From positions 1 to 40,198 of the IMG/VR virus record IMGVR_UViG_3300045988_096677: a DNA stretch of 40,198 nt. The stretch is one strand, 5' to 3'. Both the position numbers and the translations under genes were made by a program. The stretch is from a virus. This document shows positions 3,453-25,155 of this stretch, one piece after another (position 1 is the stretch's first letter; every line of letters begins with the position of its first letter). The notes beneath the pieces were generated by a model, which was given only the letters and a program-made list of their open reading frames with translations, did not search any database and had not been told where the DNA came from.

Positions 3453-4064
3453 ATGGCAACCGGAAAACCCGCATCTCGCAGAACGCCAGTAAAGCACCCT
3501 GCGAGCGTCTGTGAGAGTGTTTCTGTTTCAAACGTTAAATTCCCTGTTGAACTTCCAAAACCCCGCCAGACAGCTCCGGAGGAGTGTGTGGTGCTGATTG
3601 TGGAGACATCGGAGGATGCCGTCCGCGTCCGGGTCATCCCCCGGGAGCCTTCCGTCCGGCAGATTCTGGACGATACCTACGGCCCCGGCGGGTGGTGCAA
3701 GCGGCAATATTTTGCGGATGGTCAGCTGTGGTGCGCGGTCGGCGTGTACTGCCCGGCGACCGGGGAGTATGTCTACAAGGACGCTGCCGCGATCCCGCTT
3801 CCCTGCCGTGACCCTGCCTTGATGCGCACCACGACCAGTTTTCTGGCGGCGGCGTCCATTTGGGGCGCAGGGCGCGACGTGATGGAGCTGGGAAACCTGC
3901 TGCTCAAGAGCACGCAGGTGCCCATCGTTCAAGGCGAGCGGGAACGTTACCGGCTGAACACGTCTTTGCGGGTGGATCGCTTTGCCCGGGATGAGGCCGG
4001 CCGGATCACCATGGTGCAGTTCGAGCTGGCCGACGGAAAGAAAGCCTTATGGGAAAAGACCTGA
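3453..4064 (+). CDS. Putative Rad52/Sak-like single-strand annealing protein (203 aa)
   Basis: SD gggaggtgg upstream of ATG 3453. Motif ILDDTYGPGGWCKRQYF...CAVGVY resembles the Rad52/Sak core (LDxxxGxxGW). Sits directly upstream of NinB/Orf and near SSB. Confidence 0.5.
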   Translation: MATGKPASRRTPVKHPASVCESVSVSNVKFPVELPKPRQTAPEECVVLIVETSEDAVRVRVIPREPSVRQILDDTYGPGGWCKRQYFADGQLWCAVGVYCPATGEYVYKDAAAIPLPCRDPALMRTTTSFLAAASIWGAGRDVMELGNLLLKSTQVPIVQGERERYRLNTSLRVDRFARDEAGRITMVQFELADGKKALWEKT

Positions 4065-4603
4065 TTGGCAAGCTGCCGGTGATTTACGATCCCAAAACGC
4101 AGCACGTCACCGTGGAGAACTCGGTGGAGTTTGTGGAAACCCAGATCCGCCAGAAATTGGACGATCTGGCACACGGTGAGCCGCTGCGTCTGACCGTGAC
4201 CCTCGAGCAATACCGCCGGAAGCGGTCACTCGAGCAAAACCGGATGATGTGGGCATTGCTGACCATCATGGCGCACGCCTACAACGCCGGGCAGGGCGGC
4301 GGGATCTCGCCGGAGGACTGCTACATCGAGATGCTGGAAGAGTTCGGACTGGAATATTACTTTCTCGAGGTCCCGCAGAAAGCTCTCCCGGCGGTGCGGC
4401 AGACGTTCAAGCTGGTTCACGTTGTCGAGCTGTTGGACAATGACCGATGCACCGTCAAGGCGTCCATGGGCTCCAGCAGCTTCTCGACAGCCCAGATGAC
4501 GGATTTTATCAACCGAATTTTTGACCGGCTGGCGGAAATGGGCGTCAATGACCCCAATGTGACCGCTTGCTGGATGGAGTGGCAGGAGGTGCCGAAAAAG
4601 TGA
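4049..4603 (+). CDS. ninB: NinB/Orf-family recombination mediator (184 aa)
   Basis: RSLEQNRMMWALL matches the lambda Orf/NinB signature RSLDQNRKLWACL. Sits in a recombination module. Confidence 0.75.
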   Translation: MGKDLIGKLPVIYDPKTQHVTVENSVEFVETQIRQKLDDLAHGEPLRLTVTLEQYRRKRSLEQNRMMWALLTIMAHAYNAGQGGGISPEDCYIEMLEEFGLEYYFLEVPQKALPAVRQTFKLVHVVELLDNDRCTVKASMGSSSFSTAQMTDFINRIFDRLAEMGVNDPNVTACWMEWQEVPKK

Positions 4604-4938
4604 GCGCGTCCATCATGCAATCCCGGCGGGAGTGTTACGTCTGCCGGATGCTGTACGGCGTTGTGACGGCGCAGGGTCTCGAAGAGCACCATGTGCTCAA
4701 CGGTCCGCTCCGGCCGATGGCCGAACAATACGGCCTCAAGGTATGGCTGTGCCACCGGCACCACAACGAGCTGGGATACAGCGCACATTTCGACCACCGG
4801 CTCCGGCTGTACCTCAAGAAACAAGCCCAGCAGAATTTTGAAGCTGTGTATGACCACCGTCAGTGGATGGAGATAGTCGGAAAGAATTATCTGAGATATG
4901 CTCAATGTAGTAGCGATCATGGGGCGTCTTGTCGCTGA
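4600..4938 (+). CDS. HNH-like zinc-binding protein (CxxC...HH...CxxHH), function unknown
   Basis: GTG 4600 overlaps the ninB stop (GTGA), with ggagg 11 nt upstream; alternative ATG at 4615. Motifs ECYVCRM, EEHHVLNG, WLCHRHHN. Confidence 0.5.
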   Translation: MSASIMQSRRECYVCRMLYGVVTAQGLEEHHVLNGPLRPMAEQYGLKVWLCHRHHNELGYSAHFDHRLRLYLKKQAQQNFEAVYDHRQWMEIVGKNYLRYAQCSSDHGASCR

Positions 4939-5344
4939 TCCGGAGCTGCGCACCACCCAGAGCGGGAACAATGTGTGCAGCTTCCGGGTCGCCTGCGACC
5001 GGAACTATGCCCCGCAAGGGCAGGAACGGCAGGCGGATTTTATCGACGTCGTGGCGTGGCGTTATCAAGCGGATTTTGTCTGCAAGTATTTCCACAAGGG
5101 CAGTCTGATTGCCGTATCCGGCAGCCTGCAGACCCGGAATTATCAGGACAAGAACGGCAACAAGCGGACGGCGGTGGAAGTGCTGGCCGACAATATCAGC
5201 TTTGCTGGGGCGAAAAAGACCGAGACCGTGGATGACGGCGGCGAAGCACCGCCCAAGGATTACCGAGAGCCTGCTCCGGCATACGCACAGGGTAGCAACG
5301 ATGATTTTGCCGTTCTCAGCGACGACGAAGACCTGCCGTTTTGA
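4898..5344 (+). CDS. ssb: Single-stranded DNA-binding protein
   Basis: N-terminal OB-fold signature MLNVVAIMGRLVADPELRTTQSGNNVCSFRVA, and the acidic C-terminal tip DDEDLPF. Confidence 0.9.
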   Translation: MLNVVAIMGRLVADPELRTTQSGNNVCSFRVACDRNYAPQGQERQADFIDVVAWRYQADFVCKYFHKGSLIAVSGSLQTRNYQDKNGNKRTAVEVLADNISFAGAKKTETVDDGGEAPPKDYREPAPAYAQGSNDDFAVLSDDEDLPF

Positions 5345-5369
5345 TTGCCCCATCGGGGGGGAGGCGTGT

Positions 5370-6326
5370 ATGAAGGAAAGAAAGAAGAAAAACAGGTATC
5401 TCAACATCCAAGACTGGATGATCGATGACCTGCACCTCAAGGGGAACGACCTGCTGGCCTATGCTCTGATCTATGGGTTTTCGCAGGATGAAGAGAGCGC
5501 ATACAGCGGCAGCTATGCTTATGTCATGTATTGGCTGAGCGTCGATGAGCGGTCGGCAGTGCGCATCCTCAAGCGGCTGGAATCCATGGGGCTGATCCGG
5601 AAATGGAAAGTCCGGGTCAACGGCGTGCTCGTCAACCGCTGGACGGCTTCCACGGAGCTGCCGGAGCCAGAGACCGTGGTGACAGAAGAGGAACCGGAAC
5701 CCTTCGAAGGGGTGACAAAATGTCACCCCCGACAAAATGTCACCCCTGACAAAATGTCAGTCAGAGGGGTGACAAAATGTCAGTCAGGGGGTGACAAAAT
5801 GTCACCCAATAATCTAATAGAGAAACCTAATAGGGAAATCTATCTATCTGGCCGCGGGCCAGAGAGGATGGATGGAACAACATCCGACTGGCAGGAATCT
5901 CTGGATCATTTCCGCAACCGGCTAGAACTGGATACGTTGGCCGCGAGGTACGACCCGGAGATGCTGGATGAGATCCTGAACAACATCGTGGAGATGTACA
6001 ACTGCCCGCTGACAGTACAGGCCATCGGGCAATACCCACAGCTGACTGCCAGCGTCCGAAAGCGTCTGGATATGCTGACAAGCCAACACATCGAGTACAT
6101 CATGGACGCGATGTCCAACACAAAGAACCCGGTGAAGAACATCAAGGCGTATTTGAGAACCACCATCCTCAATGCGCCGATCACCATGGAGCATTACTAT
6201 CAGGCACAGGGCAACGCCACAGTTGCCAACCGGTCGGCACAATCTCCTGCGCCGGACATCCCGCAGAAAGTGATCCTGTCGCAGTCGCTGCGAAGAATCG
6301 GGAAAGCAGGTGCGGCGGATGGCTAA
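5370..6326 (+). CDS. Replication initiator / replisome-organizer-like protein with N-terminal winged HTH (318 aa)
   Basis: ATG 5370 after ggggggaggcg; the upstream part of track ORF 5109..6326 overlaps ssb. LKGNDLLAYALIYGFSQDEESAYSGSYAYVMYWLSVDERSAVRILKRLESMGLI is typical of phage Rep wHTH domains. Iterons lie inside the gene. Confidence 0.7.
   Translation: MKERKKKNRYLNIQDWMIDDLHLKGNDLLAYALIYGFSQDEESAYSGSYAYVMYWLSVDERSAVRILKRLESMGLIRKWKVRVNGVLVNRWTASTELPEPETVVTEEEPEPFEGVTKCHPRQNVTPDKMSVRGVTKCQSGGDKMSPNNLIEKPNREIYLSGRGPERMDGTTSDWQESLDHFRNRLELDTLAARYDPEMLDEILNNIVEMYNCPLTVQAIGQYPQLTASVRKRLDMLTSQHIEYIMDAMSNTKNPVKNIKAYLRTTILNAPITMEHYYQAQGNATVANRSAQSPAPDIPQKVILSQSLRRIGKAGAADG
5709..5807. promoter_or_regulatory. 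Iteron array: five copies of GACAAAATGTCA (core palindrome GTGACAAAATGTCAC), candidate replication origin inside the rep gene
   Basis: Copies at 5714-5725, 5731-5742, 5748-5759, 5771-5782 and 5793-5804, spaced 17, 17, 23 and 22 bp. Confidence 0.6.
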
Positions 6327-6498
6327 GAAGATCACGCTCAGTATGCCGGACAGCCCCTGCCGAAACTGCGAGGCGTGCGGAAAGATCTGCTCCAACAGCG
6401 CATACCGCACCTGTCCGCCCTTCCGGATCTGGTTCGAGGAGCGGTGGACGGATATTCAGCTTGCGGCCGAACGCCTCAAGCGCAAAAACGGAAAATAA
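6319..6498 (+). CDS. Small Cys-rich protein (59 aa; alternative GTG start 6310)
   Basis: Track ORF. CRNCEACGKIC...C pattern. Overlaps the rep stop by a few nt. Confidence 0.45.
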   Translation: MAKKITLSMPDSPCRNCEACGKICSNSAYRTCPPFRIWFEERWTDIQLAAERLKRKNGK

Positions 6499-6521
6499 CC
6501 CACAAGGAGGAAAACATCACA

Positions 6522-7316
6522 ATGGTCAACATGAACAAGATCGCAATCATCAACCTCAAGGGCGGCGTCGGCAAGTCCGTCACCGCCTGCAATCTGGCCT
6601 GCATCCTTGCCGAATTGCATTCCCGGCGGGTGCTGGTCATGGATCTGGACAAGCAGGCCAACAGCACCAAGTTTTTCAACCGGTTTTCGGATACGACGGA
6701 CACGATGGGCGACGTGCTGGAACTCCGGGTCAAGCTGCCCGACGTGATCCGGCACACCGATTTCCCCGGCGTAGACATTGCGCCCAGCAACATGACCATG
6801 CTGCTGGCAAACAAAAACGTCATGTTCGACGTCCGCCGCCCGCAGGCCGACCGGCTGAAAAATGCCCTTGAGCCGCTTCGCAGCGAGTATGACTATTGCA
6901 TTTTCGACTGCCCGCCCGATATCGACATGGCGACCATCAATGCTTTGGTCGCTGCCGATTGGGTCATCATCCCGGTGGACTGCGACGAATGGGCGTTAGA
7001 CGGTCTGGCCGAGATCATGGATCAGGTGCGAGACGTCCAGCACGGGTACAACCCGCAGCTTGAGGTCATGGGCGTGCTTGCCACAAAGTATGACCGGGGG
7101 CGGTACTCCATGCAGACCGTCAATCAGATCGCAAATCTTCACATTCCGGCTTTCCGGAACGAGGATGGCAGCGTGATGCGGATCAACTACAGCGTCAAGG
7201 TCAAAGAAGCCAAAGCAGCGCATAAGCCGCTGCACCGGTACACGCCTAACATCCCGTCGAGCGCACAGTATAAGCAGCTGGCCGCGGCGGTCAAAAAAAT
7301 TGCGGAGGGTGAGTAA
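6522..7316 (+). CDS. parA: ParA/Soj-family partition ATPase (264 aa)
   Basis: SD aaggagg upstream of ATG 6522. Deviant Walker A IAIINLKGGVGKSVT. Walker B-like VLVMDLD and IFDCPP. Confidence 0.9.
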   Translation: MVNMNKIAIINLKGGVGKSVTACNLACILAELHSRRVLVMDLDKQANSTKFFNRFSDTTDTMGDVLELRVKLPDVIRHTDFPGVDIAPSNMTMLLANKNVMFDVRRPQADRLKNALEPLRSEYDYCIFDCPPDIDMATINALVAADWVIIPVDCDEWALDGLAEIMDQVRDVQHGYNPQLEVMGVLATKYDRGRYSMQTVNQIANLHIPAFRNEDGSVMRINYSVKVKEAKAAHKPLHRYTPNIPSSAQYKQLAAAVKKIAEGE

Positions 7317-7317
7317 T

Positions 7318-7809
7318 ATGTGGCCGAAAGAACTGATTGACCGAAAATCAGCGATTGACATTGTAAACAACCTCAAATTTAAAATGCTCAGGGCACTAAA
7401 CGAGTCATTCAAAGGCTCAGACGTTCTCTGCGCATTGGAAGCGGCGAAAAGAGAACTTGAAAAGCTCGTGTATTATGTTCCAGACGAATTTTATCCAGAG
7501 TGGAGAAATCCTGAAACAGAACTGCCGAAGGTCGAAACCGAAGTGCTGGTTTTGTACCGCAACGACATTGGCGGATATAGCATTACAACGGCGCACTATG
7601 AAAACGGCAATGTTTTCTCCGAAGACAGCAAATGGTATTGGGAAGATCTTCCCAATTGGGGAACATACGACGAGGAACGGGATGACTACCGAATCCCTGA
7701 AGGATGGTGGGAAAACCGCCACTTCAACCTGGACGAAGTCTACAACAACCAGATAGACCGCCCTGTTGTGGGCTGGATGCCTTTACCGCCGAAAGGAGAA
7801 CAAAAATGA
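7318..7809 (+). CDS. DUF551-like phage protein (163 aa)
   Basis: SD ggagggtgag. C-terminal VVGWMPLPPKGE and ELPKVETEVLVLY resemble DUF551. Visibly AT-richer than its neighbours. Confidence 0.65.
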   Translation: MWPKELIDRKSAIDIVNNLKFKMLRALNESFKGSDVLCALEAAKRELEKLVYYVPDEFYPEWRNPETELPKVETEVLVLYRNDIGGYSITTAHYENGNVFSEDSKWYWEDLPNWGTYDEERDDYRIPEGWWENRHFNLDEVYNNQIDRPVVGWMPLPPKGEQK

Positions 7810-8936
7810 GCAGCGCAGGATTATTGAGCGGCCTGCTGAATACGCAAGGCTCTGACCCGGCGGGGGCGAAGATGCAGGTGGAGATGCTGCCGATCGACTG
7901 GATCATCCCGAACCCGGATAACAAGATCTACCATGTAGGCGATGTTTCTCAGCTGGCCGAGGATATCCGGAAAAATGGCGTCCGCCAACCGTTGGAAGTT
8001 GTGCAAACGGGCGGCATGACGTACAAGCTGATCGGCGGCGAGCGTCGGTTGACGGCGTGCCAAGAGCTGCTGGACGGTGGCGATGATCGGTTTTCCTCCC
8101 TGCCCTGCATCATCCTCGAGAGCAAGGGCGAGCTGGATGACCGAATCGCGCTGATTACGGCCAACGCAACAGCGCGGGAACTGACCGACGGCGAACGTCT
8201 GGCGCAGTATGAAGCTCTGAAAGATGCACTGACCGCAAAAAAACAGGCCGGACAGCTGGAAGGCAAGGTCAGAGACGCTCTGTGCAAGATTCTGGGCGAA
8301 GGAAGCGGAACCCTTGCCCGGCTGAATGCAATTTCCGCCAACTGCACCGAGGACGTCAAGGACAAGCTGCACCGGGGAGAAATCGGCTTGATGGAAGCTT
8401 ACCGGTACGCCCAGAGCGTGGCCGAAACCCAACGGAAAGCGAAGCAGCCGGAACCGCCAAAAACCGAACCACCGAAAACGTTACCGCGGAACCCGGATTA
8501 TGCGGAGTGGAATCTTCCGCCAGAAGCTATAGAGATGGTGGAAAAGGCTCACGAGGAGCAAAAAAGAGCCCAGAACGATGCACCTAAACCTACGGCATCA
8601 CCGTACAGGGCAAAACCTGTGGAGATTCACGAGCAGCCGAAGGAGCAAACCCATAAGCGGGACACGCTGCACAAACTGGCGGAGAAAACGCTGGGTGCAA
8701 ATGTAGCATGGGAACTGGCGTGGGAAGACGTGCGCTTTCGGCTTGCGTACTACAAGCAGCCTCTGCCCGGCGGGGCGGTGCTGTGGAAGCAGGTAGACAC
8801 AACCAGAGAGGCTGCCGGTCAACCATGCGAAAACTACGCGATCATCCTGAACGACGGAACGTTCAAAACGATCGGCTGGGAATTGTATAACGACGCATTG
8901 ATGAGCTTGGCAAATTATCTTAATCTTTGCGAATGA
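7806..8936 (+). CDS. parB: ParB/Spo0J-like N-terminal-domain protein with a long C-terminal extension (376 aa)
   Basis: ATG 7806 overlaps the previous stop. ParB boxes GVRQPLEV and LIGGERRLTAC. Confidence 0.85.
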   Translation: MSSAGLLSGLLNTQGSDPAGAKMQVEMLPIDWIIPNPDNKIYHVGDVSQLAEDIRKNGVRQPLEVVQTGGMTYKLIGGERRLTACQELLDGGDDRFSSLPCIILESKGELDDRIALITANATARELTDGERLAQYEALKDALTAKKQAGQLEGKVRDALCKILGEGSGTLARLNAISANCTEDVKDKLHRGEIGLMEAYRYAQSVAETQRKAKQPEPPKTEPPKTLPRNPDYAEWNLPPEAIEMVEKAHEEQKRAQNDAPKPTASPYRAKPVEIHEQPKEQTHKRDTLHKLAEKTLGANVAWELAWEDVRFRLAYYKQPLPGGAVLWKQVDTTREAAGQPCENYAIILNDGTFKTIGWELYNDALMSLANYLNLCE

Positions 8937-9076
8937 CCGAAAAAAGAGGACTCCACAATGAAAACCGTACAAGATACATACATCGGCATCGGCTGGGAGG
9001 ATGTACCGGAGAAGGCCGCGCAAATGAGCATGGATGAGCTGTCTTGATATACAAGTAATTTTGAGGAGGCAATCGG

Positions 9077-9520
9077 ATGACACCGCGAGAGTTTCGGAAA
9101 CTGTACGCTATCCCATACGATATCGAGAGACGCAAGCTGCGGATCGAGCGGCTGGAAGCGATGCAGGTCGAAGGCCCTCAGAGTGCGTCCGATGTGGTCA
9201 AGTCTTCCCGCGGTGAGGGAAATACCTGCATCATCGGCCATGCCACCGTGACCGGAACGGATGCGGCGTTTTCCCGGCGGGAGGAAGAGATCCGATATCT
9301 CCGGAAGAAAAACCGCGAGCAGCGGGCAGAGTACACCGAGGCCGTCCGGCTTGTGGAAAGCTGCGAGGATGTGGAGCTTCGCGCGATGCTTTCGGCGGTC
9401 TGCATCGAAGGCAAGAAACCGCAAGAAGTTGCGGTTGAGTTTATGGAGCAGGGCGTGGATATCGGGGCGGAAGCCATCCGGCGAAGAATCGAACGGTGGA
9501 TCAATCAGAATGCGAGGTAG
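9077..9520 (+). CDS. Putative late-gene transcriptional regulator (sigma-70 region-4-like HTH at the C-terminus)
   Basis: SD gaggagg upstream. Position just before the packaging module. C-terminal KKPQEVAVEFMEQGVDIGAEAIRRRIERW looks HTH-like. Family assignment is tentative. Confidence 0.45.
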   Translation: MTPREFRKLYAIPYDIERRKLRIERLEAMQVEGPQSASDVVKSSRGEGNTCIIGHATVTGTDAAFSRREEEIRYLRKKNREQRAEYTEAVRLVESCEDVELRAMLSAVCIEGKKPQEVAVEFMEQGVDIGAEAIRRRIERWINQNAR

Positions 9521-9526
9521 GAAACT

Positions 9527-9688
9527 ATGGAGAACGAAAAATGCAATATGCCACCCAATCCGTATGATTGCTGGAATTGCGAAACAGCTATTCATTTTTG
9601 GGAGGTTGGCGGAAGGAATCAAAAGATACTTTGCGAAAATCATAATTGTCCACGCTGGAAAGCTGAACATGGAGGAGAAAATGAATGA
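9527..9688 (+). CDS. Small Cys-rich zinc-ribbon-like protein (53 aa, below the track cutoff)
   Basis: My own translation: MENEKCNMPPNPYDCWNCETAIHFWEVGGRNQKILCENHNCPRWKAEHGGENE. SD gaggtagg upstream. Confidence 0.4.
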   Translation: MENEKCNMPPNPYDCWNCETAIHFWEVGGRNQKILCENHNCPRWKAEHGGENE

Positions 9689-10229
9689 CCAAGAAAAGCT
9701 TTTCTTTTTGGCGTGCTATGCGATGAGGGGATTTGCAAAACCCTCAACTGTATATCGCATTTTTCACAATGCTATTCCCATTAAACGTGCGCTCTATTAT
9801 TTGGGAAAATGGGAAGGAAAGGGATTTTATGGCGACGGCGTAAGCGAATGGTCAGGCCGATTCTACACATCTAAGCTGCCAACTCAATATCGTGAACTTT
9901 TGGAAGGCGTAACCCCTATCCCGATAGAGGATTATGACAACGATTACTTTGCCTCTTCTTTGATTGCCGGATATTTTCTGCCAGAAAAAGGAGAAGCCCC
10001 TGACTATGCTTACATTAACGAGAGACGTTACCAGTTGAGTGGAAAATCAATTTGCAGAATGTGCGGGCAAGAGCTTCCACGGAAATGCCTGTTTTGCGAG
10101 CATTATTTCCCATTCGATGCTGATTCCGGCGGGTGCAATGCAACTATGAAAAAGACGAAAAAAGACGCTGAATGCCAAATGTTTTGCAAACAAAACAATT
10201 GGACATATAGTTGGAGGCAGTACAGATGA
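9681..10229 (+). CDS. Hypothetical Cys-rich protein (182 aa; alternative start 9669)
   Basis: In frame with track ORF 9261..10229, whose 5' part overlaps the previous gene. C-terminal CRMCG...CLFCEH...C...C cluster. AT-richer island. Confidence 0.55.
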   Translation: MNDQEKLFFLACYAMRGFAKPSTVYRIFHNAIPIKRALYYLGKWEGKGFYGDGVSEWSGRFYTSKLPTQYRELLEGVTPIPIEDYDNDYFASSLIAGYFLPEKGEAPDYAYINERRYQLSGKSICRMCGQELPRKCLFCEHYFPFDADSGGCNATMKKTKKDAECQMFCKQNNWTYSWRQYR

Positions 10230-10405
10230 CACGAAAAATCAATTCGGATGAGATGGAACGGCGGGTGATCTACCTGCGAGGATACTATAACGGCTTGGTG
10301 CTGGCCGAAACAGATGGATCTTTCGACGCGGTGTATAAGGAAATCCTCGATAATCTCATTTGGGCTATGGGAGACGAACCCCAAGAAACCAACGGAGAAA
10401 CGTGA
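10226..10405 (+). CDS. Hypothetical protein (59 aa)
   Basis: ATG 10226 preceded by ggagg and ATGA-coupled to the previous stop. In frame with track ORF 10211..10405. Confidence 0.5.
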   Translation: MTRKINSDEMERRVIYLRGYYNGLVLAETDGSFDAVYKEILDNLIWAMGDEPQETNGET

Positions 10406-10412
10406 AAGCCGT

Positions 10413-10484
10413 GTCCGGAATGTCCGATTTGTCCGGAATGTCCGATTTGTCCGGAATGTCCGATTTGTCCGGAATGTCCGGTTT
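10413..10484. repeat. Intergenic tandem repeat: 4 x 18 bp GTCCGGAATGTCCGATTT, equivalent to 8 x 9-bp GTCCGNNNT
   Basis: Copies at 10413-10430, 10431-10448, 10449-10466 and 10467-10484; the last has one substitution. Confidence 0.9.
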
Positions 10485-10489
10485 CGGTA

Positions 10490-10498
10490 TGCTATAAT
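10490..10498 (+). promoter_or_regulatory. Extended -10 promoter element TGcTATAAT abutting the repeat array
   Basis: TG at 10490-10491 and TATAAT at 10493-10498. No good -35, which extended -10 promoters tolerate. Confidence 0.45.
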
Positions 10499-10710
10499 CA
10501 TAATGCGGACATTGGGAGTAGCCAATGAACCGTCATCATTGTGGTGAGACATCCCGGCGGGAAGCATAGCACGGCATTTTGAAATTTCCACCGTGCTCAA
10601 TGGATATTGCGCCGTCCGCTCCAAAATCCAGCGGCGCACAATGACTACGACCGAAAACACGATTTCCCGGAGTGGTGTCCACAGTGGACACCTTGAGAAA
10701 GGAGCACCCC

Positions 10711-10833
10711 ATGGTCACTACGATTCCCGCAAAGCGTGAGCCTCGGGCAGAGATCGGAGGCCGTGGCTGTACACAAGGTGCGTCGGCCTGCTATCCGACG
10801 CAAACCTACTGCTGGTACACGGCGGGTGCATGA
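10711..10833 (+). CDS. Candidate micro-ORF, 40 aa, three Cys (MVTTIPAKREPRAEIGGRGCTQGASACYPTQTYCWYTAGA)
   Basis: SD aaggag 7 nt upstream of the ATG. Stop followed 10 nt later by a 13-bp perfect hairpin. It could equally be chance inside a structured RNA. Confidence 0.25.
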   Translation: MVTTIPAKREPRAEIGGRGCTQGASACYPTQTYCWYTAGA

Positions 10834-10843
10834 TGATTTATTA

Positions 10844-10878
10844 AGCGTCCCCGATGTGTAATGTGCATCGGGGACGCT
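10844..10878 (+). terminator. 13-bp perfect hairpin (agcgtccccgatg / catcggggacgct), a terminator-like or processing structure just upstream of the tRNA-like gene
   Basis: Arms at 10844-10856 and 10866-10878, followed by cttattat (weak U tract). Confidence 0.5.
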
Positions 10879-10886
10879 CTTATTAT

Positions 10887-11021
10887 GCCGTCGTAGCTCA
10901 GCGAAGAGCACCGTGCAGGTAACACGGGTTACATTGGCGATAACGCACAGGTGCTTAACACATGGATTAGCCACCATGCAATGGTACTGTGCGGGCGCGG
11001 GTTCGACTCCCGCCGACGGCT
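10887..11021 (+). tRNA. Aberrant tRNA-like gene (135 nt) with a ~67-nt insertion between the anticodon arm and T arm; anticodon ambiguous (GGU if the local hairpin is used, but position 33 is A)
   Basis: Acceptor GCCGTCG/CGACGGC. D arm GCTC-AGCGAA-GAGC (no GG in the loop). CCGTG-CAGGTAA-CACGG hairpin. T arm GCGGG-TTCGACT-CCCGC. The insertion contains GTTA..TAAC, GCACAG..CTGTGC and CATGG..CCATG stems. Confidence 0.5.
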
Positions 11022-11028
11022 TGATTAT

Positions 11029-11104
11029 GCCGCGTTAGCTCAACAGGCAGAGCACCCGGCTCATAACCGGATCGTTGCAGGTTCGATTCCTGCACGCGGC
11101 ACCA
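11029..11104 (+). tRNA. tRNA-Met (anticodon CAT), CCA encoded
   Basis: Acceptor GCCGCGT/ACGCGGC. D arm GCTC-AACAGGCA-GAGC. Anticodon loop CTCATAA. T arm GCAGG-TTCGATT-CCTGC. Then A-CCA. Confidence 0.9.
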
Positions 11105-11218
11105 AGACTTTCAGGAAGGACGGGACTTCATCGGTGTTGAGAAAGACTCTCAATACTTCGAGACTGCAAAAATGCGAATCCAACAAGCTCAAGAAGAAGG
11201 ACAACAGCTTAGTATGAT

Positions 11219-11575
11219 ATGACCGAAACATTTTTGAATTGGCTCCGGGCGTTGATCGCGTCCGGAGACGTGCATCCATTCTACTGCTCTTCGCAGTGGG
11301 TTGGGCTGTCGCACCGCGTGCTCGACATGGATCAGCACGAGTGCCAGATCTGCAAGCAGCGCGGCAGATACAAGTGCGCCGAATTGGTGCATCATGTCAA
11401 TCATGTCAAGGACGCGCCGGACAAGGCACTGGATATCTGGTATCGAGACGCCGACGGCAACGAGCAGCGCAATCTTATCAGTGTATGCAAGGACTGCCAC
11501 GAAACGGTTTGCCACCCGGAGCGGCTGCACAAGACAGCTCACGCACCGCCGTTGACCCGCGAACGCTGGGATTGA
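11219..11575 (+). CDS. HNH endonuclease (packaging-associated)
   Basis: CQICKQRG...ELVHHVNHV...ISVCKDCHETVCH is the HNH/zinc motif. Position immediately upstream of terS/terL as in HK97-like cos phages. Confidence 0.85.
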   Translation: MTETFLNWLRALIASGDVHPFYCSSQWVGLSHRVLDMDQHECQICKQRGRYKCAELVHHVNHVKDAPDKALDIWYRDADGNEQRNLISVCKDCHETVCHPERLHKTAHAPPLTRERWD

Positions 11576-11721
11576 GCAGCACACCCCCCGTCTGGAAAAA
11601 CCTGCCAGCTGGCACCCCCCTATACTCGGGGTGTGCCCTGACTTTCCAGCTGGATTTGCGCGCACGCGCACGCGCGGGAATCTCCGTCATATTGCACAAG
11701 CCGGACAGAAAGGAAATCGCC

Positions 11722-12069
11722 ATGGTGAAAGTGGAAAACGCCCGAAAAAAGTATCAGGCCGAACTCGCCGAAATCGAGGAAGCGGCCAAGGCTGCCGGAT
11801 GCGACACAAATTTTCTGTACCGCACCACGCTTGACCGGTATCTCGATCAGCTGGATCTGCTGGAAAAGTCTCAGGCGGACATCAAGGCCAACGGGACGAC
11901 CATTATTCAGATAACTCCCCGGGGAACGGAGCGCGAGGTTCCGAATCCGGCAATTCAGGCTTACGGACAGACCGCGAGTGCAGCCAACTCCACCGTTTCG
12001 ACGCTGCTGCGGATCGTCCAGACTTACAAGTTTATGGCGGCGAAGCCGGAAGAGGACGATGAGCTGTAA
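11722..12069 (+). CDS. terS: Terminase small subunit (P27-family-like, 115 aa)
   Basis: Internal ATG of track ORF 11239..12069, after SD-like gaaaggaaa. Size, position and the NPAIQAY motif fit. Overlaps the terL start. Confidence 0.7.
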   Translation: MVKVENARKKYQAELAEIEEAAKAAGCDTNFLYRTTLDRYLDQLDLLEKSQADIKANGTTIIQITPRGTEREVPNPAIQAYGQTASAANSTVSTLLRIVQTYKFMAAKPEEDDEL

Positions 12070-13726
12070 CATCCCACCGGAAATTCTGGAGTACATCGAG
12101 CAGGTGGAGGCCGACAACCCACGGGCCAACAAGGAGCAGCACGCGCTGGCCGCATTGATCCGCAAAATTTTTGAAACTGAAGACATCCATGTGGATACCG
12201 AGCGAATGCAAAAATATTTTGGACTCGCCCGGTATTTTCCTTATGACCGGCTTTTTCCGTGGCAGAAGTTTGTGCTGGGCCTCTGGCTATGCACATACAA
12301 CGCCGACGGAAGCCCCCGCTTCAAAACGCTGTTCGGGATGGTCGGGCGCGGCGCGGGAAAAGATGGCGTGATCGCGCTTTCGTCCGCTGCGCTTATCAGC
12401 CCATACAACACGGTGAGGCACTACAACGTCGATATCTGCGCCAACAACGAGGAACAGGCCGTCACCCCCGTCAAAGATATTGTGGAAGCTCTGGAAAACC
12501 CAAAGTATGAGGCGAAGCTGTCAAAGTATTATTACCATACCAAGGAGATTTTGAGGGGTCGCAAGAATTTGGGCGAGGTCAAAGGCCGAACCAACAACCC
12601 CAAGGGGCGCGACGGTATGCGTTCCGGTGCGGTGATCTTCAACGAGGTCCACCAATATCAAAATTACGACAATATCAAAGTTTTCATCACCGGCCAGGGC
12701 AAAGTCGCAGAGCCTCGGGTCGGTTTTTTCACGTCGAATGGCGACGTGTCCGACGGACCGCTGGATGATTATCTGGCTCGTGGCCGGAGGATCTTGTTTG
12801 AGGGCGAAGAGGATCGAGGCTTTCTGCCGTATATCTGCTGTCTGGACTCGAAAGACGAAGTCCACGATGAGCAGAACTGGCCGAAAGCCAATCCCTCTCT
12901 CCCCTATCTGCCGGACTTGTGGAAGGAGACACGCGATGAATACCATGACTGGTTAGACCACCCGGAACAGAATGGAGACTTCATCACGAAACGGATGGGC
13001 ATCCGCGACGGGGCGAAAGAAATCGCCGTGACGGACTACGAAAAGATCCGGCTCACAAACCGCCCCCTGCCGGATATGACCGGCTGGACGTGTACCGTCG
13101 GCATTGACTACGCCGAACTGAACGACTGGGCGGCGGTCAACTTGCATTTCCGGCGCGGGGATGATCGGTATGATATCAATCACGCATGGATCTGCGCCCA
13201 AAGCAAAACGCTGACCCGAATCAAAGCACCGTGGAAGCACTGGTGCGAGATGGGCTGCTGCACCTATGTGGACGATGTCAGCATCTCCCCATATCTGCTG
13301 ACCGACTTCATCCGAGATGTGGCGTCAAAATACACCGTCAAAAAAATTGCGCTTGACCATTTCCGATACACCATGATGGCGGAAGCGATGCAGAGTATCG
13401 GATTTGACGCGCAAGACAAATCCCGGGTCAAGCTGATCCGCCCAAGCGACATTATGCAAGCCGATCCGGTGATTCAGGACTGCTTTGACCGGCAGCTGTT
13501 CACTTGGGGCGACTCCCCTCACCTGCGATGGGCGACCAACAACACCAAGCGCGTCCGGAGCAGCCGGAGTCAGGGCGTGGATACCGGAAATTTCATCTAT
13601 GCAAAAATCGAGGCCAAAAGCCGGAAAACCGACCCCTTTATGGCTCTCGTTGCGAGCATTGCAATCGAGAGTGAATTGGGAACCGGCCAAGTACAGCTGC
13701 CAAAAATCGGCGCAATCTGCTGGTAG
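12059..13726 (+). CDS. terL: Terminase large subunit (555 aa)
   Basis: Internal ATG of track ORF 11978..13726. Walker A-like GMVGRGAGKDG, with a nuclease half downstream. Synteny HNH-terS-terL-portal. Confidence 0.9.
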   Translation: MSCNIPPEILEYIEQVEADNPRANKEQHALAALIRKIFETEDIHVDTERMQKYFGLARYFPYDRLFPWQKFVLGLWLCTYNADGSPRFKTLFGMVGRGAGKDGVIALSSAALISPYNTVRHYNVDICANNEEQAVTPVKDIVEALENPKYEAKLSKYYYHTKEILRGRKNLGEVKGRTNNPKGRDGMRSGAVIFNEVHQYQNYDNIKVFITGQGKVAEPRVGFFTSNGDVSDGPLDDYLARGRRILFEGEEDRGFLPYICCLDSKDEVHDEQNWPKANPSLPYLPDLWKETRDEYHDWLDHPEQNGDFITKRMGIRDGAKEIAVTDYEKIRLTNRPLPDMTGWTCTVGIDYAELNDWAAVNLHFRRGDDRYDINHAWICAQSKTLTRIKAPWKHWCEMGCCTYVDDVSISPYLLTDFIRDVASKYTVKKIALDHFRYTMMAEAMQSIGFDAQDKSRVKLIRPSDIMQADPVIQDCFDRQLFTWGDSPHLRWATNNTKRVRSSRSQGVDTGNFIYAKIEAKSRKTDPFMALVASIAIESELGTGQVQLPKIGAICW

Positions 13727-13737
13727 GAGGACGAACG

Positions 13738-14964
13738 TTGACACGAGAAGAATGGAATCTTGGGGTATTCGACGGAGTCCCCGTGCAAAAACTCAGTTAT
13801 GAAAAGTTGGATGCGGCAACCGGAAAAACAGTGACGCTTTCCTGCAACGACTGGCTCTATTACCGCGAGGAACTGCAACTGCGGGAGCTGGCGTTTGGCT
13901 GCTGCGTCAATCTGATTGCCCGTGCCATTGCCAACTGTGAGTTCAAAACGTTTGAGGGGCGAGCAGAAGCGAAAAACGATTATTATTATATGCTCAACGT
14001 CGAGCCGAACCTCAACGAAAACAGTACCGCGTTCTGGCAGAATGCTATTTTCCGGCTCTATGCCTATAACGAGGTGCTGATCGTTCCCGTCCAAAAAAAT
14101 CGGCGGTTGATGTTGGTCACAGCAGACAGCTGGACGCCCCCGGAGAATTACCCGACGCGGGAAAAAATCTATGAGGGCGTGCAGCTGGGCGACGAACCCA
14201 ACACCCGGCGGCTGAAAGAATCGGAAGTGCTGCACCTGACACTCAACAACCGGAACGTCAAGAACGTGGTCGATGCAATCTACAACAGCTATAACAAGCT
14301 GATCCAGACCGCGATGAAAAACAATGCGTGGAATAACGGCCAGCACATGAAAGTCCACGTTGGGCAGGTCGCCAGCGGGCAAAACAATTTTGAGCAGCGT
14401 TTTGCGGAAATGTTGGAATCACAGTATAAGCCGTTTTTGCACAGTGATTCCGGCATTCTGCCCGAGTTTGACGGGTTCGATTTTCAGCCGTTCGGCGGGA
14501 GCACGTCGGCCAAAGATACCCGCGACATCCGGGCATTGGTCGATGATATTTTCACCTTCACAGCTCGGGGATTCGGGATCCCTCCGGTGCTGCTTCTGGG
14601 CAATGTGGCCGGAATGTCGGACGCAATCAGCTTGTGGCTGACCACGGCCATTGACCCGCTTGCCGCCCAGATCGGCGAAGAGTGCAACCGGAAACTGTTC
14701 GGGCTGGACGGCTGGAAGCAAGGCTTTCGAGTGTTGGTCGATACGTCCACCATCCAGCATTTTGATATGTTTGCCAACGCCGCCAACGTGGAGAAGATCG
14801 TCGGGTCGGCGGTATGGAGCATCAACGACATCCTGACCAAGTGCGGACAGGAACCCTTGCCGTATGACTGGGCGGACAAGCACTGGATGACCAAGAACAT
14901 TGCAACGATCGAGGAAGTCGCTCGGGCGGCAACCTCACAGCAGAAGGAGGGGCAAAATGCCTAA
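13738..14964 (+). CDS. Portal protein (HK97 family), TTG start
   Basis: SD aggagg 7 nt upstream of TTG. About 400 aa, sitting between terL and the prohead protease. Confidence 0.9.
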   Translation: MTREEWNLGVFDGVPVQKLSYEKLDAATGKTVTLSCNDWLYYREELQLRELAFGCCVNLIARAIANCEFKTFEGRAEAKNDYYYMLNVEPNLNENSTAFWQNAIFRLYAYNEVLIVPVQKNRRLMLVTADSWTPPENYPTREKIYEGVQLGDEPNTRRLKESEVLHLTLNNRNVKNVVDAIYNSYNKLIQTAMKNNAWNNGQHMKVHVGQVASGQNNFEQRFAEMLESQYKPFLHSDSGILPEFDGFDFQPFGGSTSAKDTRDIRALVDDIFTFTARGFGIPPVLLLGNVAGMSDAISLWLTTAIDPLAAQIGEECNRKLFGLDGWKQGFRVLVDTSTIQHFDMFANAANVEKIVGSAVWSINDILTKCGQEPLPYDWADKHWMTKNIATIEEVARAATSQQKEGQNA

Positions 14965-15634
14965 GCCGTATTTCGATTTCCAACAGTCGGGCGAACAGGC
15001 CGACATCTACATTTTCGGGGATATCACGTCTTACCCGTATCTGGACAGCGATACCAGCGCATACCGTCTGGCTCAGCAGTTGCAGAAGGCCGGTGATCTG
15101 GCCGAGATCAACATCCACATTGACAGCTACGGCGGCGAGGTTTCGGAAGGGTTTGCAATCTACAACGCGATCCGAAACAAAAACGCCCGGGTCAATACCT
15201 ATGCCGATGGCTTTGTGGCAAGTGCTGCGATCTATCCGTTTCTGGCCGGTGATCAGCGGGTGGCAAACAATGTCAGCGCGTTCTATTTTCACCCGGCGAT
15301 CGGCGGACAGTACGGCTACGCGGAAGACCTGCGGGAAGCGGCAGATGAGCTGGACAAGCTGACCGAGATCGGTCTGGGCGCATTCACCGCGGCCGGCATG
15401 ACCGAGCAGGCTGCGCGTGACCTCATCAAGAGCAAGACATGGTATGCGCCGGAGGCGATGCTCGAAATGGGTCTTGCTACCAGCATCCAGAAGCAGGGCG
15501 ACAGTAAGATGGCAACGCAGAGCGTCCGCGATCTGATCGTCCGGCAGATGCTGACCACGCCTGCCCCGCCCGCTCCCCCGAAAGAGCCGGAGCAAAAGAA
15601 ACCGACGCTTTTTGACCTGTTTGCCAAAATCTGA
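14957..15634 (+). CDS. ClpP-like prohead (head maturation) protease
   Basis: ATG 14957 after aaggagggg. INIHIDSYGGEVSEGFAIYNAI and ADGFVASAAIY are ClpP/S14-type motifs. Confidence 0.9.
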   Translation: MPKPYFDFQQSGEQADIYIFGDITSYPYLDSDTSAYRLAQQLQKAGDLAEINIHIDSYGGEVSEGFAIYNAIRNKNARVNTYADGFVASAAIYPFLAGDQRVANNVSAFYFHPAIGGQYGYAEDLREAADELDKLTEIGLGAFTAAGMTEQAARDLIKSKTWYAPEAMLEMGLATSIQKQGDSKMATQSVRDLIVRQMLTTPAPPAPPKEPEQKKPTLFDLFAKI

Positions 15635-15646
15635 AAATTCAGCCGT

Positions 15647-15674
15647 AAAGCCGCACCCGAAAGGGCGCGGCTTT
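15647..15674 (+). terminator. Hairpin between the protease and capsid genes (possible attenuating terminator)
   Basis: aaagccgcaccc-gaaa-gggcgcggcttt, one mismatch, followed by ctcaat (weak U tract). Confidence 0.35.
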
Positions 15675-15700
15675 CTCAATACAAGAAAAGGAGCAAAACC

Positions 15701-17188
15701 ATGAATCTCAAGGACTTTTGGAAGAAGAACCAGAAGATCACTGCCCTGCGGGAGACGTTCCAGCAGGCAATCAAGGACAACGACAGCGAGAAGTTTGCAA
15801 ACTCGTTCGAGCAGCTGATGACCGCCATTGGTGAGGAAATCGGCAACGAGTACCAGAACGAGATCGACGGTCTGCGCCAGTCCTTTGACGGCAGTGTTCT
15901 TCAGGCTCGCGGCGTGCGCCAGCTGACCACCGAGGAATCCAACTACTATCAGGCGTTCGCCAAGGCTGCACGTTCGGCCAACCCCAAGCAGGAACTGGAG
16001 AACCTGAATGTCGTTATGCCTGAAACCATCATCTCCAGCGTACTGGATGACCTGCGCTCTGACCACCCGCTGCTGAGTCACATCCAGTTTACGACCACCG
16101 GCGGCGCGATCCGCATGATGGTCAACACCGACGGCTATCAGGAGGCGGCATGGGGCGACCTATGCGACTCCATCATTAAGGAGCTGACCTCCGGTTTCAA
16201 GGAGATCGACGCTGGCCTGTTCAAGCTGTCGGCGTTCATTCCGGTCTGCAACGCCATGCTCGACCTTGGCCCCGTCTGGCTGGATCGCTACATCCGCGCA
16301 ATTCTGGCCGAGGCCATTGCCAACGGCCTCGAAGTCGGCATTGTGGTCGGCAACGGCGACAAGAAGCCCATCGGCATGACCCGCGACGTCGGCGCAAACG
16401 TTGCCGTGGTCGGCGGCAAGTATCCCGAGAAGGCAAAGATCAAGGTGACGGACTTTGAGCCGAAAACCCTCGGCAATCTGATCTCGCTGGTCGTCGTGAC
16501 CGCCAACGGCAAAAACCGCAAGACCAACGATCTGATCCTGCTGGTCAACCCGCAGGATTATTTCCAGCTGGTCATGCCTGCCACGACCGTCCGTGCGCCG
16601 GATGGCACCTACCGCAACGACGTGCTTCCCTACCCCATCACTGTGATCCAGACCGCTGCACTTTCCCGCGGTGAGGCTGTGTTCGGCATGGGCCGCCAGT
16701 ATTTCGCGGCGGTCGGCATGGGTAAGGATGGCCGCATTGAGTATGACGACAGCGTGCGTTTCCTCGAGGATCAGCGCGTGTACAAGGCCAAGCTGTACGC
16801 AAACGGCCTGCCGCTGGACAACAATGCCTTCCTGCATCTGGATGTTTCCGGCCTGCGCCCCATCTCCTACCGCGTGACCACCGTTCCTGAACCGACTGCC
16901 TCCGACGACGCAACGCTGACCGCCCTGAAGATCGGCAGTCTGACTCTGTCGCCTGAGTTTGCGGCTGGCACTGTGAGCTACACTGCCGCCACCACTGCAT
17001 CGACCAATACCATCCTTGCAACTCCGGCATCTGCCTCTGCAAAGATCAAGGTCAAGGTCGGCAGCGTCGAGATCGACAACGGCAAACCGGCAACGTGGGC
17101 GGAAGGCTCCAACACCGTGACCATTACCGTGACCGCTGAGGATGGCACCACCACCAAGACTTACACCGTCACGGTCACGAAATCCTGA
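15701..17188 (+). CDS. Major capsid protein (HK97 fold) with a C-terminal cadherin-like beta-sandwich domain
   Basis: SD aaaggag. N-terminal delta-like coiled region, then the capsid core. The last ~95 aa (nt 16901-17185) read DATLTALKIGSLTLSPEF...VSYTA...NTVTITVTAEDGTTTKTYTVTVTK. Confidence 0.9.
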   Translation: MNLKDFWKKNQKITALRETFQQAIKDNDSEKFANSFEQLMTAIGEEIGNEYQNEIDGLRQSFDGSVLQARGVRQLTTEESNYYQAFAKAARSANPKQELENLNVVMPETIISSVLDDLRSDHPLLSHIQFTTTGGAIRMMVNTDGYQEAAWGDLCDSIIKELTSGFKEIDAGLFKLSAFIPVCNAMLDLGPVWLDRYIRAILAEAIANGLEVGIVVGNGDKKPIGMTRDVGANVAVVGGKYPEKAKIKVTDFEPKTLGNLISLVVVTANGKNRKTNDLILLVNPQDYFQLVMPATTVRAPDGTYRNDVLPYPITVIQTAALSRGEAVFGMGRQYFAAVGMGKDGRIEYDDSVRFLEDQRVYKAKLYANGLPLDNNAFLHLDVSGLRPISYRVTTVPEPTASDDATLTALKIGSLTLSPEFAAGTVSYTAATTASTNTILATPASASAKIKVKVGSVEIDNGKPATWAEGSNTVTITVTAEDGTTTKTYTVTVTKS

Positions 17189-17517
17189 TGAGTACCGCAC
17201 TGGACGACCTGCGGCCGGTGCTGCTCCCGGACATCAAGAACTATCTTGATCTGACTTGGGCTGACGACAAGATGGACGCGAAGATCTGGGACATTGCGAC
17301 CGGCGGCATGGCCTACCTCAACGGAAAGATCGGCGATGAGCAGAACTACACTCTGCCCGGTCTTGCCCGGAGCCTGCTGCTCGACTACATCCGCTACGCC
17401 CGCGACGGTGCAGCGGATATCTTCGAGAACAACTACCGGCATCTGATTTTGGCAGCTCAGAACGAAAGGCGGGTGACGGCGTATGGCGCGGAAGCTCCCG
17501 ACCCGCCCGACGGCTGA
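17188..17517 (+). CDS. Head-tail connector (gp6-like) protein
   Basis: ATG overlaps the capsid stop (TGATG). About 109 aa. Synteny. Confidence 0.7.
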   Translation: MSTALDDLRPVLLPDIKNYLDLTWADDKMDAKIWDIATGGMAYLNGKIGDEQNYTLPGLARSLLLDYIRYARDGAADIFENNYRHLILAAQNERRVTAYGAEAPDPPDG

Positions 17518-18720: not shown

Positions 18721-18725
18721 TCACC

Positions 18726-18761: not shown

Positions 18762-18774
18762 AAGGAGGACAAAA

Positions 18775-19996: not shown

Positions 19997-20010
19997 GGAG
20001 GTGACGGACT

Positions 20011-25146: not shown

Positions 25147-25155
25147 GGTGAGAAA

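Follow-up and report, generated by a model that had tools for sequence, protein, structure and literature searches.

The window analyzed here is a 40,198-nt stretch of viral DNA taken as a whole (IMG/VR record IMGVR_UViG_3300045988_096677, positions 1 to 40,198), and it is the genome of a temperate siphophage-type virus of the human-gut Clostridia kind. Its TerL protein shares 67-71% identity with that of three "Bacteriophage sp." records, unannotated and from human faeces, and the nearest cultured relative by TerL is a [Clostridium] scindens phage at 41% identity. Our subject is a leader region within this genome, 10412-11104, and above all the conserved RNA element near its start that we have designated Module A (10504..10693, + strand, ~190 nt). 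Since a ParB-like gene (7704-8936) and a regulator gene lie upstream, and an HNH gene (11219-11575) followed by the genes for a P27-type small terminase (TerS) and TerL lies downstream, the leader region falls exactly on the early/late boundary. Along the + strand it holds an array of direct repeats, a promoter, Module A, a small open reading frame (ORF), an intrinsic terminator, a tRNA-like RNA and a canonical tRNA-Met, and the best explanation for this arrangement is a leader of the late (packaging, morphogenesis) operon that is made of independent cassettes. When the region was compared with a cultured-phage database by blastn, only its tRNA-Met part matched other phages.

A preliminary description, made from the letters alone, had seen in 10499-11028 a promoter-driven, hairpin-dense stretch without ORFs and had proposed one large structured noncoding RNA. 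The observation was largely right, and the single-RNA interpretation is partly supported: a promoter-driven conserved structured RNA (Module A) and a tRNA-like RNA with an insertion are both there, whereas one RNA of ~530 nt is not. The extended -10 at 10490-10498 reads TGCTATAAT, the stems 10568-10574/10591-10597 and 10609-10614/10632-10637 are found as described, the 19-nt palindrome at 10674-10692 is perfect, the long stem at 10844-10878 is flagged by a scan as a terminator of 16 pairs, and the tRNA-like module with its multi-hairpin insertion spans 10887-11021 and scores 42 bits on the Rfam tRNA model. Homologous phage loci do covary, with compensatory changes in 5-6 of the 7 pairs of one helix. 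The stretch does contain an ORF, led by a Shine-Dalgarno (SD) sequence on the + strand at 10711-10833, and its reported G+C-richness is marginal (0.56, a value like that of the late genes, against 0.43-0.50 upstream and 0.51-0.60 downstream).

Module A begins with a 5' hairpin domain formed by P0 (10505-08/10530-33) and H0 (10510-15/10522-27), and it further includes a candidate long-range pairing, P1' (10536-41/10598-603), the octamer CCGGCGGG at 10554-61, the covarying helix H1 (10568-74/10591-97) and the invariant CUCAAUGG (10596-10603). Helix H2 (10609-14/10632-37), which carries a conserved 17-nt loop, comes next, and the palindromic hairpin at 10674-92 forms the 3' end, all on the + strand. 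In alignments the order is a clade-specific 5' hairpin domain, the invariant CCCGGCGGGAAKCAUAGC, H1, CUCAAUGG, H2, an A-rich linker and the palindrome GUGUCCAC-N-GUGGACAC, and the element measures ~150-190 nt with 4-5 helices. The linker between H2 and the palindrome is variable in length, 15-45 nt, and one locus (L118) has a whole gene inserted in it.

Relatives were collected with an HNH protein search, which gave 55 IMG/VR loci, and with conserved-core DNA patterns, which gave more; a metagenome scan, in which about half of the matches were random, contributed 35 true further copies that constitute an independent covariation set, and architectures were counted in 101 unique related loci with enough downstream sequence. 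Pairwise comparison delimits two conserved noncoding blocks, 10466-10704 and 10730-10802, and the segment between them is ~125-150 nt longer in relatives than in the window. The sequence of the Module A region is conserved in ~100 unique related loci, and its nucleotide conservation is high even between phages with different HNH genes. A covariance model was built on 29 sequences, the window's among them, which makes its match there partly circular; it finds one match in the window (157.6 bits) and one full copy per related genome, always downstream of a homologue of the regulator gene (70 loci) and a TGTCCG repeat array. No second copy of the putL/putR kind was found elsewhere in the genome with this model, and only the palindrome recurs. 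Module A has no match in Rfam 15, even at E <= 10. A 16-mer, GGGCAGAGATCGGAGG, returned essentially random matches in unrelated phyla from 596 Gb of genome contigs, a volume for which the pattern is too short.

The evidence that Module A acts as RNA comes chiefly from H1 and the 5' hairpin. H1 shows double changes at 5 of its 7 pairs among 29 IMG/VR sequences and at 6 of 7 among the 35 independent metagenome sequences; it is 95-98% paired, and slid controls drop to 22-55%. Its wobble cells, read from the sequences, are G.U and never A.C, which points to an RNA of the + strand. The sequence of P0/H0 is clade-specific, yet the hairpin always folds. H2, the junctions and the palindrome give no covariation because they are invariant among relatives, the sole compensatory variant of H2 being GCACCG/CGGTGC in one relative (L240). 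For 10503-10885 the + strand RNA has a lower folding energy than any of 100 shuffles (z = -3.8), and since this holds for the - strand too (z = -5.4), folding energy alone does not assign the strand. Taken together, the comparative sequence data indicate that Module A is a conserved, folded and undescribed leader RNA of ~190 nt. We also looked by eye for pairing between Module A and the second conserved block, or between CCCGGCGGG and a terminator arm, and rejected both as inconsistent between clades. At a contig end in L240 (11897-12126) the Module A core (CCCGGCGGG to the end of H2) is repeated in tandem at least 2.5 times, and this copy carries the compensatory H2 variant; the duplication is either real or an assembly artefact.

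The transcript that contains Module A would start from a promoter that looks activator-type, judged from its repeats and extended -10. The extended -10 (TGCTATAAT, 10490..10498, + strand, read in the sequence) is directly abutted by a second -10-like hexamer, CATAAT, at 10499-10504, and both hexamers are kept as NANNNT in every clade. Because the second hexamer abuts the first -10, it probably lies upstream of the start site, and because there is no -35 match, a promoter scanner does not list the site at 10490-10504. In place of a -35 element there are tandem direct repeats of TGTCCGGAA/TGTCCGATT (10412..10484, + strand; a 9-bp unit ~8 times and an 18-bp unit 4.1 times by Tandem Repeats Finder), which we take to be putative activator-binding sites. 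The pattern TGTCCGNNNTGTCCG has seven overlapping matches at 10412-10480 and one match with 1 mismatch elsewhere, 8 in total vs 0.3 expected. Arrays of TGTCCG units precede the promoter in all clades, with ACGACCG units instead in L243, and in L105, L118 and L243 the repeats begin directly after the stop codon of the regulator gene.

This regulator gene, reg147 (9077..9520, + strand, 147 aa), matches phrog_36 "transcriptional regulator" at E = 1e-5 and presumably encodes a late transcriptional activator of the Ltr type. In a single-sequence AF2 model its C-terminal half weakly matches sigma-factor region 4 structures (E 0.7-3), and nearly all of the top structure matches are sigma region 4 or closely similar small helix-turn-helix domains. 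No significant match was found in Pfam, NCBIfam and PDB sequence searches. Ltr proteins activate the terS promoter only when direct repeats are present just beyond the ltr gene, and they need no other phage protein for this (PMC3753634). The arrangement in the window is like that of the Ltr-dependent terS promoters described there (RinA, ArpU, LtrA-C) in having a small regulator upstream of the packaging genes, repeats distal to it and a promoter driving the late operon, and the sigma-region-4-like C-terminal fold, weakly matched as it is, resembles that of family II LtrA. It differs from them in that a conserved structured leader RNA, a leader ORF or a terminator between promoter and terS is not mentioned in that part of the source (PMC3753634).

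If transcription begins at this promoter, it would meet at least one terminator before the first late protein gene in every arrangement inspected. The palindrome at the end of Module A is followed by at least 5 T and no small ORF in 20/101 loci, and in these it is therefore a canonical intrinsic terminator. In 70/101 loci, the window included, there is no T-run after the palindrome, and an SD, an ATG and a small ORF follow instead; the remaining loci inspected have the tRNA-like element and then a terminator. In the window the terminator after the ORF (10844..10878, + strand) has the G+C-rich hairpin and U-run of the intrinsic kind, with a stem of 16 pairs, 9 of them G-C, and a tail, CTTATTAT, that has 5 T within 8 nt, so that the U-tract is interrupted. 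A terminator of unrelated sequence stands at the equivalent place in every ORF-bearing clade inspected. The 17-nt palindrome core GTGTCCACNGTGGACAC occurs in three exact copies in the window (10675-10691, 18731-18747, 38198-38214; 0.19 expected), of which the second belongs to a palindromic terminator between two late genes (18726-18752, 12-bp stem, T6). Relatives have up to four palindrome copies, also after HNH and late genes, with differing outer stems and T-runs. The third copy in the window lies between minus-strand genes and adjoins another CCGGCGGG; an invariant palindrome core is in itself unusual for terminators. A scan for sigma-70 consensus promoters found no sigma-70-like + strand promoter in 10608-26481, and no promoter-like site precedes the tRNA-like RNA, tRNA-Met, HNH, TerS and TerL.

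The small ORF that follows the palindrome in the window encodes 40 aa (ATG at 10711 to a stop at 10831-33, + strand) and is preceded by an SD, GAAAGGAG, at 10697-10704 with GGAG at 10701-10704. It is a 41-codon in-frame deletion derivative of an ORF of 62-82 aa: relative to L001, the window has lost 123 nt and has kept SD, ATG and frame. One or other form is present in 70/101 related loci, every ORF-bearing clade has kept SD and ATG, and the N-terminal part exists in three versions, one of them unrelated, all in frame with a conserved REPRAEIGGxGC. In the commonest type the N-terminal 47 codons have a ratio of nonsynonymous to synonymous substitution rates (dN/dS) of 0.65 and variable sites distributed 17/19/18 over the codon positions, with no third-position bias; in the conserved part the values are 0.25 and 4/3/9. 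The protein family comprises 134 clusters, all of them from gut Caudoviricetes contigs, and searches of Pfam, NCBIfam and PDB sequences gave no Pfam domain and no significant match.

The 3' part of this ORF is also conserved as nucleotide sequence, and we call it block B (GAGCCNNGGGCAGAGATCGGAGG..GGCTGTA..AAGG, 10731..10801, + strand; up to 89% nucleotide identity across clades). It contains a hairpin (10780-86/10795-801) with a conserved loop, CCUGYUAU, and 3 pairs with compensatory changes. The clade of the window and L001 has one extra base pair inserted in this hairpin, so its frame shifts after GGRGCTQG. After GGxGC, frame and stop codon position differ between clades because the hairpin changes by compensatory substitutions and, in the clade of the window and L001, by insertion of a whole base pair. 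On these patterns we read the ORF as selected for translation into a nucleotide-constrained region, and so as a leader or moron ORF, not a classical protein gene. We also considered a three-segment attenuator in block B and rejected it: the 2:3 hairpin covaries, and the 1:2 alternative is 80% paired with one compensatory pair.

Beyond the terminator lies the tRNA-like RNA (10887..11021, + strand, 135 nt), with a structured variable arm of ~62 nt and an anticodon loop, CAGGUAA, that has A at position 33. It belongs to the Rfam tRNA family (RF00005) by its score, 42 bits against a gathering score of 29 with relaxed filters, and the 62 inserted nt fall between model positions 44 and 45, the variable-arm position; ARAGORN does not call it, and relatives' elements score 43.5-53 bits. 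Among eight unique relatives covariation is seen in the acceptor, D and T arms and in a 7-bp helix of the variable arm, 14/32 pairs being compensatory, and the variable-arm insert opens with a conserved ACAUUGGCGAUA or AUCGCUGGUGACA. Because the anticodon loops differ between members and are partly noncanonical (CAGGUAA, UUUCUAA, CUGAUAC, CUGGUAC, CGUUUAA and an AAG triloop, with G33 in one relative), at least some members are unlikely to decode, and 10887-11021 itself does not combine the canonical 7-nt loop with U33, the normal length and the detection by tRNA finders that mark a functional decoder. Variable arms of class II tRNAs measure 10-24 nt. The element is like these and the allo-tRNAs with long variable arms, the latter described in PMC5389517, in keeping the acceptor, D, anticodon and T arms and in having an extra helix at the variable-arm position, and unlike them in an arm of ~62-70 nt with internal hairpins and in anticodon loops that are noncanonical or lost in several members. 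It is absent from ~80% of Module A loci. The window and L019 have it behind the terminator, L002, L061, L105 and others have it immediately behind the palindrome, and in L022 two palindrome copies flank it. It is a separate cassette and not a domain of Module A. A canonical tRNA-Met (CAU) follows at 11029..11104 (+ strand; called by ARAGORN, Rfam tRNA 66 bits) and most relatives have one, in many cases accompanied by tRNA-Trp or tRNA-Lys.

Each of three pieces, Module A, the ORF together with block B, and the tRNA-like element, can be found in relatives independently of the others, and their order varies or insertions separate them. One phage with a different terminase (Terminase_6N; L364) has a gene-free stretch of ~920 nt (1560-2800) that holds tRNA fragments, a tRNA-Trp, a long tRNA-like RNA, a palindrome, a small ORF and an extra element before HNH, with no Module A; in its small ORF the conserved 3' block, block B, has been swapped for the 3' part of a tRNA-Met. 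An ORF without Module A and with block B replaced in this way implies that the cassettes shuffle by recombination. Of the distant members of the small-ORF family that were inspected, one locus has a standard Module A and one has none. The extra pre-HNH element is conserved and apparently structured (L016, 2845-2975; also L243, L061, L105, L118 and L364), reads GCGCACC..GAGGGGGCGGCGCGAAUAGCGGGGCAUCUGGCCGCGAAAGUUCCAGAUGCAGCGGCCC, is followed by a terminator, has no Rfam match and does not occur in the window.

If the activator-type late promoter starts the transcript, then the first ~190 nt of the RNA would be Module A. Because the palindrome has no U-tail here, transcription should run past it into the small ORF and stop at 10844-10878, and because terminators precede the first late gene and the same palindromic terminator recurs at 18726-18752, late expression should need read-through. 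Module A is the candidate for providing it, since no other element is invariably present, promoter-proximal in every case and single-copy. It would then act in cis as an antitermination RNA for the late operon, possibly by modifying the elongating RNA polymerase itself, as put, EAR and canT do, or alternatively by loading a phage or host factor, in the manner of nut or of conAn2 with ConAn1. On this reading the small ORF, as an optional cassette, would be a translated leader or a moron, and the tRNA-like element would be a mobile cassette of its own. We regard a leader of cassettes with Module A as its cis-acting antitermination RNA as a serious possibility to be held tentatively; within the classes of regulatory RNA, Module A is best placed among structured cis-regulatory leaders, where it is probably an antiterminator. 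That it is in addition a new fold of self-sufficient RNA antiterminator, the first for a late operon of a Gram-positive phage and paired with a family of sequence-invariant "GUGUCCAC-N-GUGGACAC" terminators spread through these genomes, is doubtful.

Only a handful of systems (put, EAR, conAn2 and canT) are known in which RNA brings about processive antitermination, and ~100 human-gut phage loci with a single-copy covarying leader between an Ltr-type promoter and terminators offer a compact candidate for another such class, placed at the point where a temperate phage becomes committed to making particles. If antitermination by Module A is true, late expression in widespread human-gut Clostridia phages would be gated by RNA and not only by an Ltr activator, and the REPRAEIGGxGC peptide and the tRNA-like RNAs with giant variable arms would be further undescribed accessories of that control region. 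The locus also yields a tRNA-like family with a structured variable arm of ~60-70 nt and drifting anticodon loops, and a leader ORF that seems to be conserved more in being translated than in its sequence. If the terminators are merely leaky, the finding becomes an ordinary structured 5' leader with tRNA cassettes.

Known systems resemble this arrangement in part. At the lambda late promoter, PR'-qut-6S RNA-tR', a short leader transcript ends at a strong terminator before the late genes, the same layout of promoter, leader, terminator and late genes as here; unlike Module A, the lambda RNA has no conserved structure, and the promoter here looks activator-dependent. Lambda Q control involves a Q gene upstream, a Q-binding DNA element at the promoter and a sigma-dependent promoter-proximal pause at a transcribed -10-like element; the second -10-like hexamer here, at 10499-10504, probably lies upstream of the start site, and no Q homologue was found among the neighbouring ORFs in Pfam, PHROG and NCBIfam searches. 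The put sites of HK022 (putL/putR) are ~70 nt and lie just downstream of their promoter (PMC9378689), and they share with Module A the position of a structured nascent RNA between phage promoter and terminators and a -10-like hexamer near the start (PMC9378689). They consist of two stem-loops in a lambdoid E. coli phage and serve early operons in two copies, whereas Module A is longer, has 4-5 helices, is single-copy and precedes the late operon of Clostridia-type gut phages. There is no evident sequence relationship, and cis action is shared only in our proposal, put being known to bind the beta' zinc-binding domain of RNA polymerase.

The leaders conAn2 of pLS20 (~300 nt, dependent on a GC-rich tract and a stem-loop; PMC8191782) and canT of Tn916 (341-452 nt; PMC11658703) are like the window's in being several-hundred-nt leaders of long operons with internal terminators in Gram-positive mobile elements. 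The GC-rich tract and stem-loop of conAn2 may be set beside the invariant GC-rich CCCGGCGGG next to covarying H1, and conAn2 works with a small adjacent protein, as here a small ORF often follows Module A. ConAn1 is encoded upstream, whereas the small ORF here is downstream, optional and unrelated in sequence, and no ConAn1-like protein was found among the neighbouring ORFs (Pfam, PHROG, NCBIfam). Both systems, moreover, come from plasmid and integrative conjugative elements (ICE) and are functionally defined families without a shared model.

Several points weigh against antitermination by Module A. It is from the layout alone that we infer it, Module A has no detectable similarity to EAR in Rfam, and its likeness to put, conAn2 and canT is one of description and not of a family model. 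Because H2, the junctions and the palindrome are invariant and show no covariation, their conservation could be at the DNA level, and both CCGGCGGG and the palindrome are motifs dispersed genome-wide. The terminator at 10844-10878, with its interrupted U-tract, may simply be leaky. The phage with a different terminase (L364) has terminators, palindrome and small ORF and no Module A, and promoters of types other than the sigma-70 consensus, lying downstream of the terminators, would escape the scan made here.

The octamer deserves separate treatment. CCGGCGGG (core CCC-GGC-GGG, often TCCCGGCGGGA) has 15 copies on the + strand of the window and 0 on the - strand, with 2.7 expected, at 3685-10561 and at 32978-39841 and nowhere in the late region 10562-32977; some copies are inside minus-strand genes. 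Across 62 related loci (531 kb; L056-L119) there are 315 copies on the strand of Module A and 0 on the other, and Module A itself has one copy in the window and two in relatives. The position and orientation would fit a Chi-like signal facing a genome end just 3' of HNH, perhaps the Chi-like signal of the uncultured Clostridia host. Sequence features place a probable cos site between HNH and TerS, at 11576-11722. That interval has C-rich runs, CACACCCCCCGTC and GGCACCCCCCTATACTCGGGGTGTGCC; the ends of six IMG/VR contigs fall no more than ~90 nt from the HNH stop, and one contig end (L014/L087) reads ...GTGGACACCCCCCTCCC and then CTGTCTCTTATACACAT, which we take to be the Nextera adapter. We considered Module A as the cos site, as a main explanation for its conservation, and rejected it, since its covariation is of the RNA type and both the contig ends and the C-rich runs are found 3' of HNH.

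These DNA motifs make the case for an alternative in which Module A is conserved at the DNA level, as cos/pac accessory sites, repressor operators (the palindrome) and Chi-like sites (CCGGCGGG) ~1 kb from the genome end. The palindrome is invariant like a protein-binding site and has three copies in the window, the octamer is strand-polar genome-wide (15:0 in the window, 315:0 in relatives), also inside minus-strand genes, TGTCC is common to the TGTCCG repeats and the palindrome, and the - strand folds as well as the + strand. A DNA-level reading would nevertheless explain parts of Module A and not H1, P0/H0 or the fixed spacing: H1 and the 5' hairpin keep their pairing through compensatory changes, with G.U and without A.C, the dispersed palindromes have variable outer stems and T-runs, as RNA terminators do, and the probable cos is elsewhere, just 3' of HNH. 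We consider it improbable. More room should be left for an RNA that acts in trans, a stand-alone late small RNA (sRNA) serving as decoy, sponge or antisense regulator, for which the position before the late genes is incidental. The 20/101 loci with a U-tailed palindrome form a complete unit of promoter, ~150-nt RNA and terminator, and the conserved loops and junctions are such as protein- or RNA-binding sRNAs have, and so we rate this reading as unlikely only, mindful that the terminating U-tract is missing in 70% of loci, where the RNA continues into the ORF, that Module A always sits exactly between late promoter and late genes, and that a search confined to the phage found no antisense complementarity apart from that of the dispersed palindrome and octamer. 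Were Module A a riboswitch-like sensor, with a metabolite, ion or tRNA as its signal, that decides termination at the palindrome or at downstream terminators, this would account for the aptamer-like pattern of covarying H1 and P0/H0 around invariant junctions and loops, for a terminator hairpin that directly follows in some clades, and for three CGGCG copies that, as RNAalifold suggests, could compete for the single GCGCCG strand of H2. This reading fares worse than the DNA-level one and is quite improbable: between H2 and the supposed expression platform lies a linker of 15-45 nt, which in L118 even holds an entire inserted gene, 70% of loci lack the U-tract, no alternative pairing covaries, the elements concerned being invariant, and no riboswitch, EAR (epsC, RF01735) or T-box matched the window in Rfam at E <= 10.

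Two further readings shift the weight from Module A to its neighbours. The functional unit might be the small protein, a moron gene, with Module A as a 5' untranslated region (UTR) governing how it is translated or how stable its mRNA is. All three N-terminal versions retain SD, ATG and an open frame, as does the window despite its in-frame deletion, and the conserved C-terminal peptide has a dN/dS of 0.25; against this stand ~30/101 loci with Module A and no ORF, the ORF of L364 without Module A and with block B replaced by part of a tRNA, an N-terminal part that is almost neutral (dN/dS 0.65; 17/19/18), and a frame after GGxGC and a stop position that are not conserved. We hold this to be decidedly unlikely, somewhat more so than the trans-acting sRNA and less so than the DNA-level reading. 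The single large ornate RNA like GOLLD or ROOL, with a tRNA-like module embedded as one of its domains, proposed for the whole of 10499-11028 in the preliminary description, has in its favour a phage with adjacent tRNA genes, a hairpin-dense stretch and no annotated protein there, and Module A shares with GOLLD and ROOL a phage or prophage location beside tRNA genes; it differs from them in its architecture and in its 190 nt vs ~600-800 nt. The comparative sequence data already contradict such an RNA. The terminator at 10844-10878 splits the leader from the tRNA-like element, an SD-led ORF lies inside the stretch, and in relatives the pieces separate, are reordered or are interrupted, with the tRNA-like element missing from ~80% of loci. 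In Rfam 15, 10350-11150 has no GOLLD or ROOL match at E <= 10, neither GOLLD (RF01998, a multi-domain RNA of ~800 nt) nor ROOL (RF03087, ~580 nt) matches the window or 17+2 relatives, and tRNA is the only family found there. No tmRNA was detected by ARAGORN or Rfam; a tmRNA has a tRNA-like domain made by its two ends and an internal tag ORF that lacks SD and ATG, whereas the ORF here has both and lies outside the tRNA-like element. Group I/II introns have no Rfam match either, the 62-nt insertion being in the variable arm and not in the anticodon loop, where group I introns of bacterial tRNAs sit. An RNA of this size and kind is thus extremely improbable.

Outside the leader, two accessory ORFs lie between the regulator gene and the repeats. 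One encodes 186 aa (9661-10229) with a Cys-rich, zinc-finger-like C-terminus and is present in 1 related locus, the other encodes 64 aa (10211-10405) and is present in 4, and neither has family matches in Pfam, NCBIfam, PDB sequence and PHROG searches. At 2678-2872, nested tandem repeats of 12, 18 and 48 nt, GGC/TCC-rich, probably fall within a coding region and would there encode a Gly/Ser-rich repeat. In the early region, at 5714-5842, adjacent tandem repeats built on GACAAAATGTCA (units of 17 nt x2.7, 23 nt x2.6 and 13 nt x2.2) look like iterons or an operator array.

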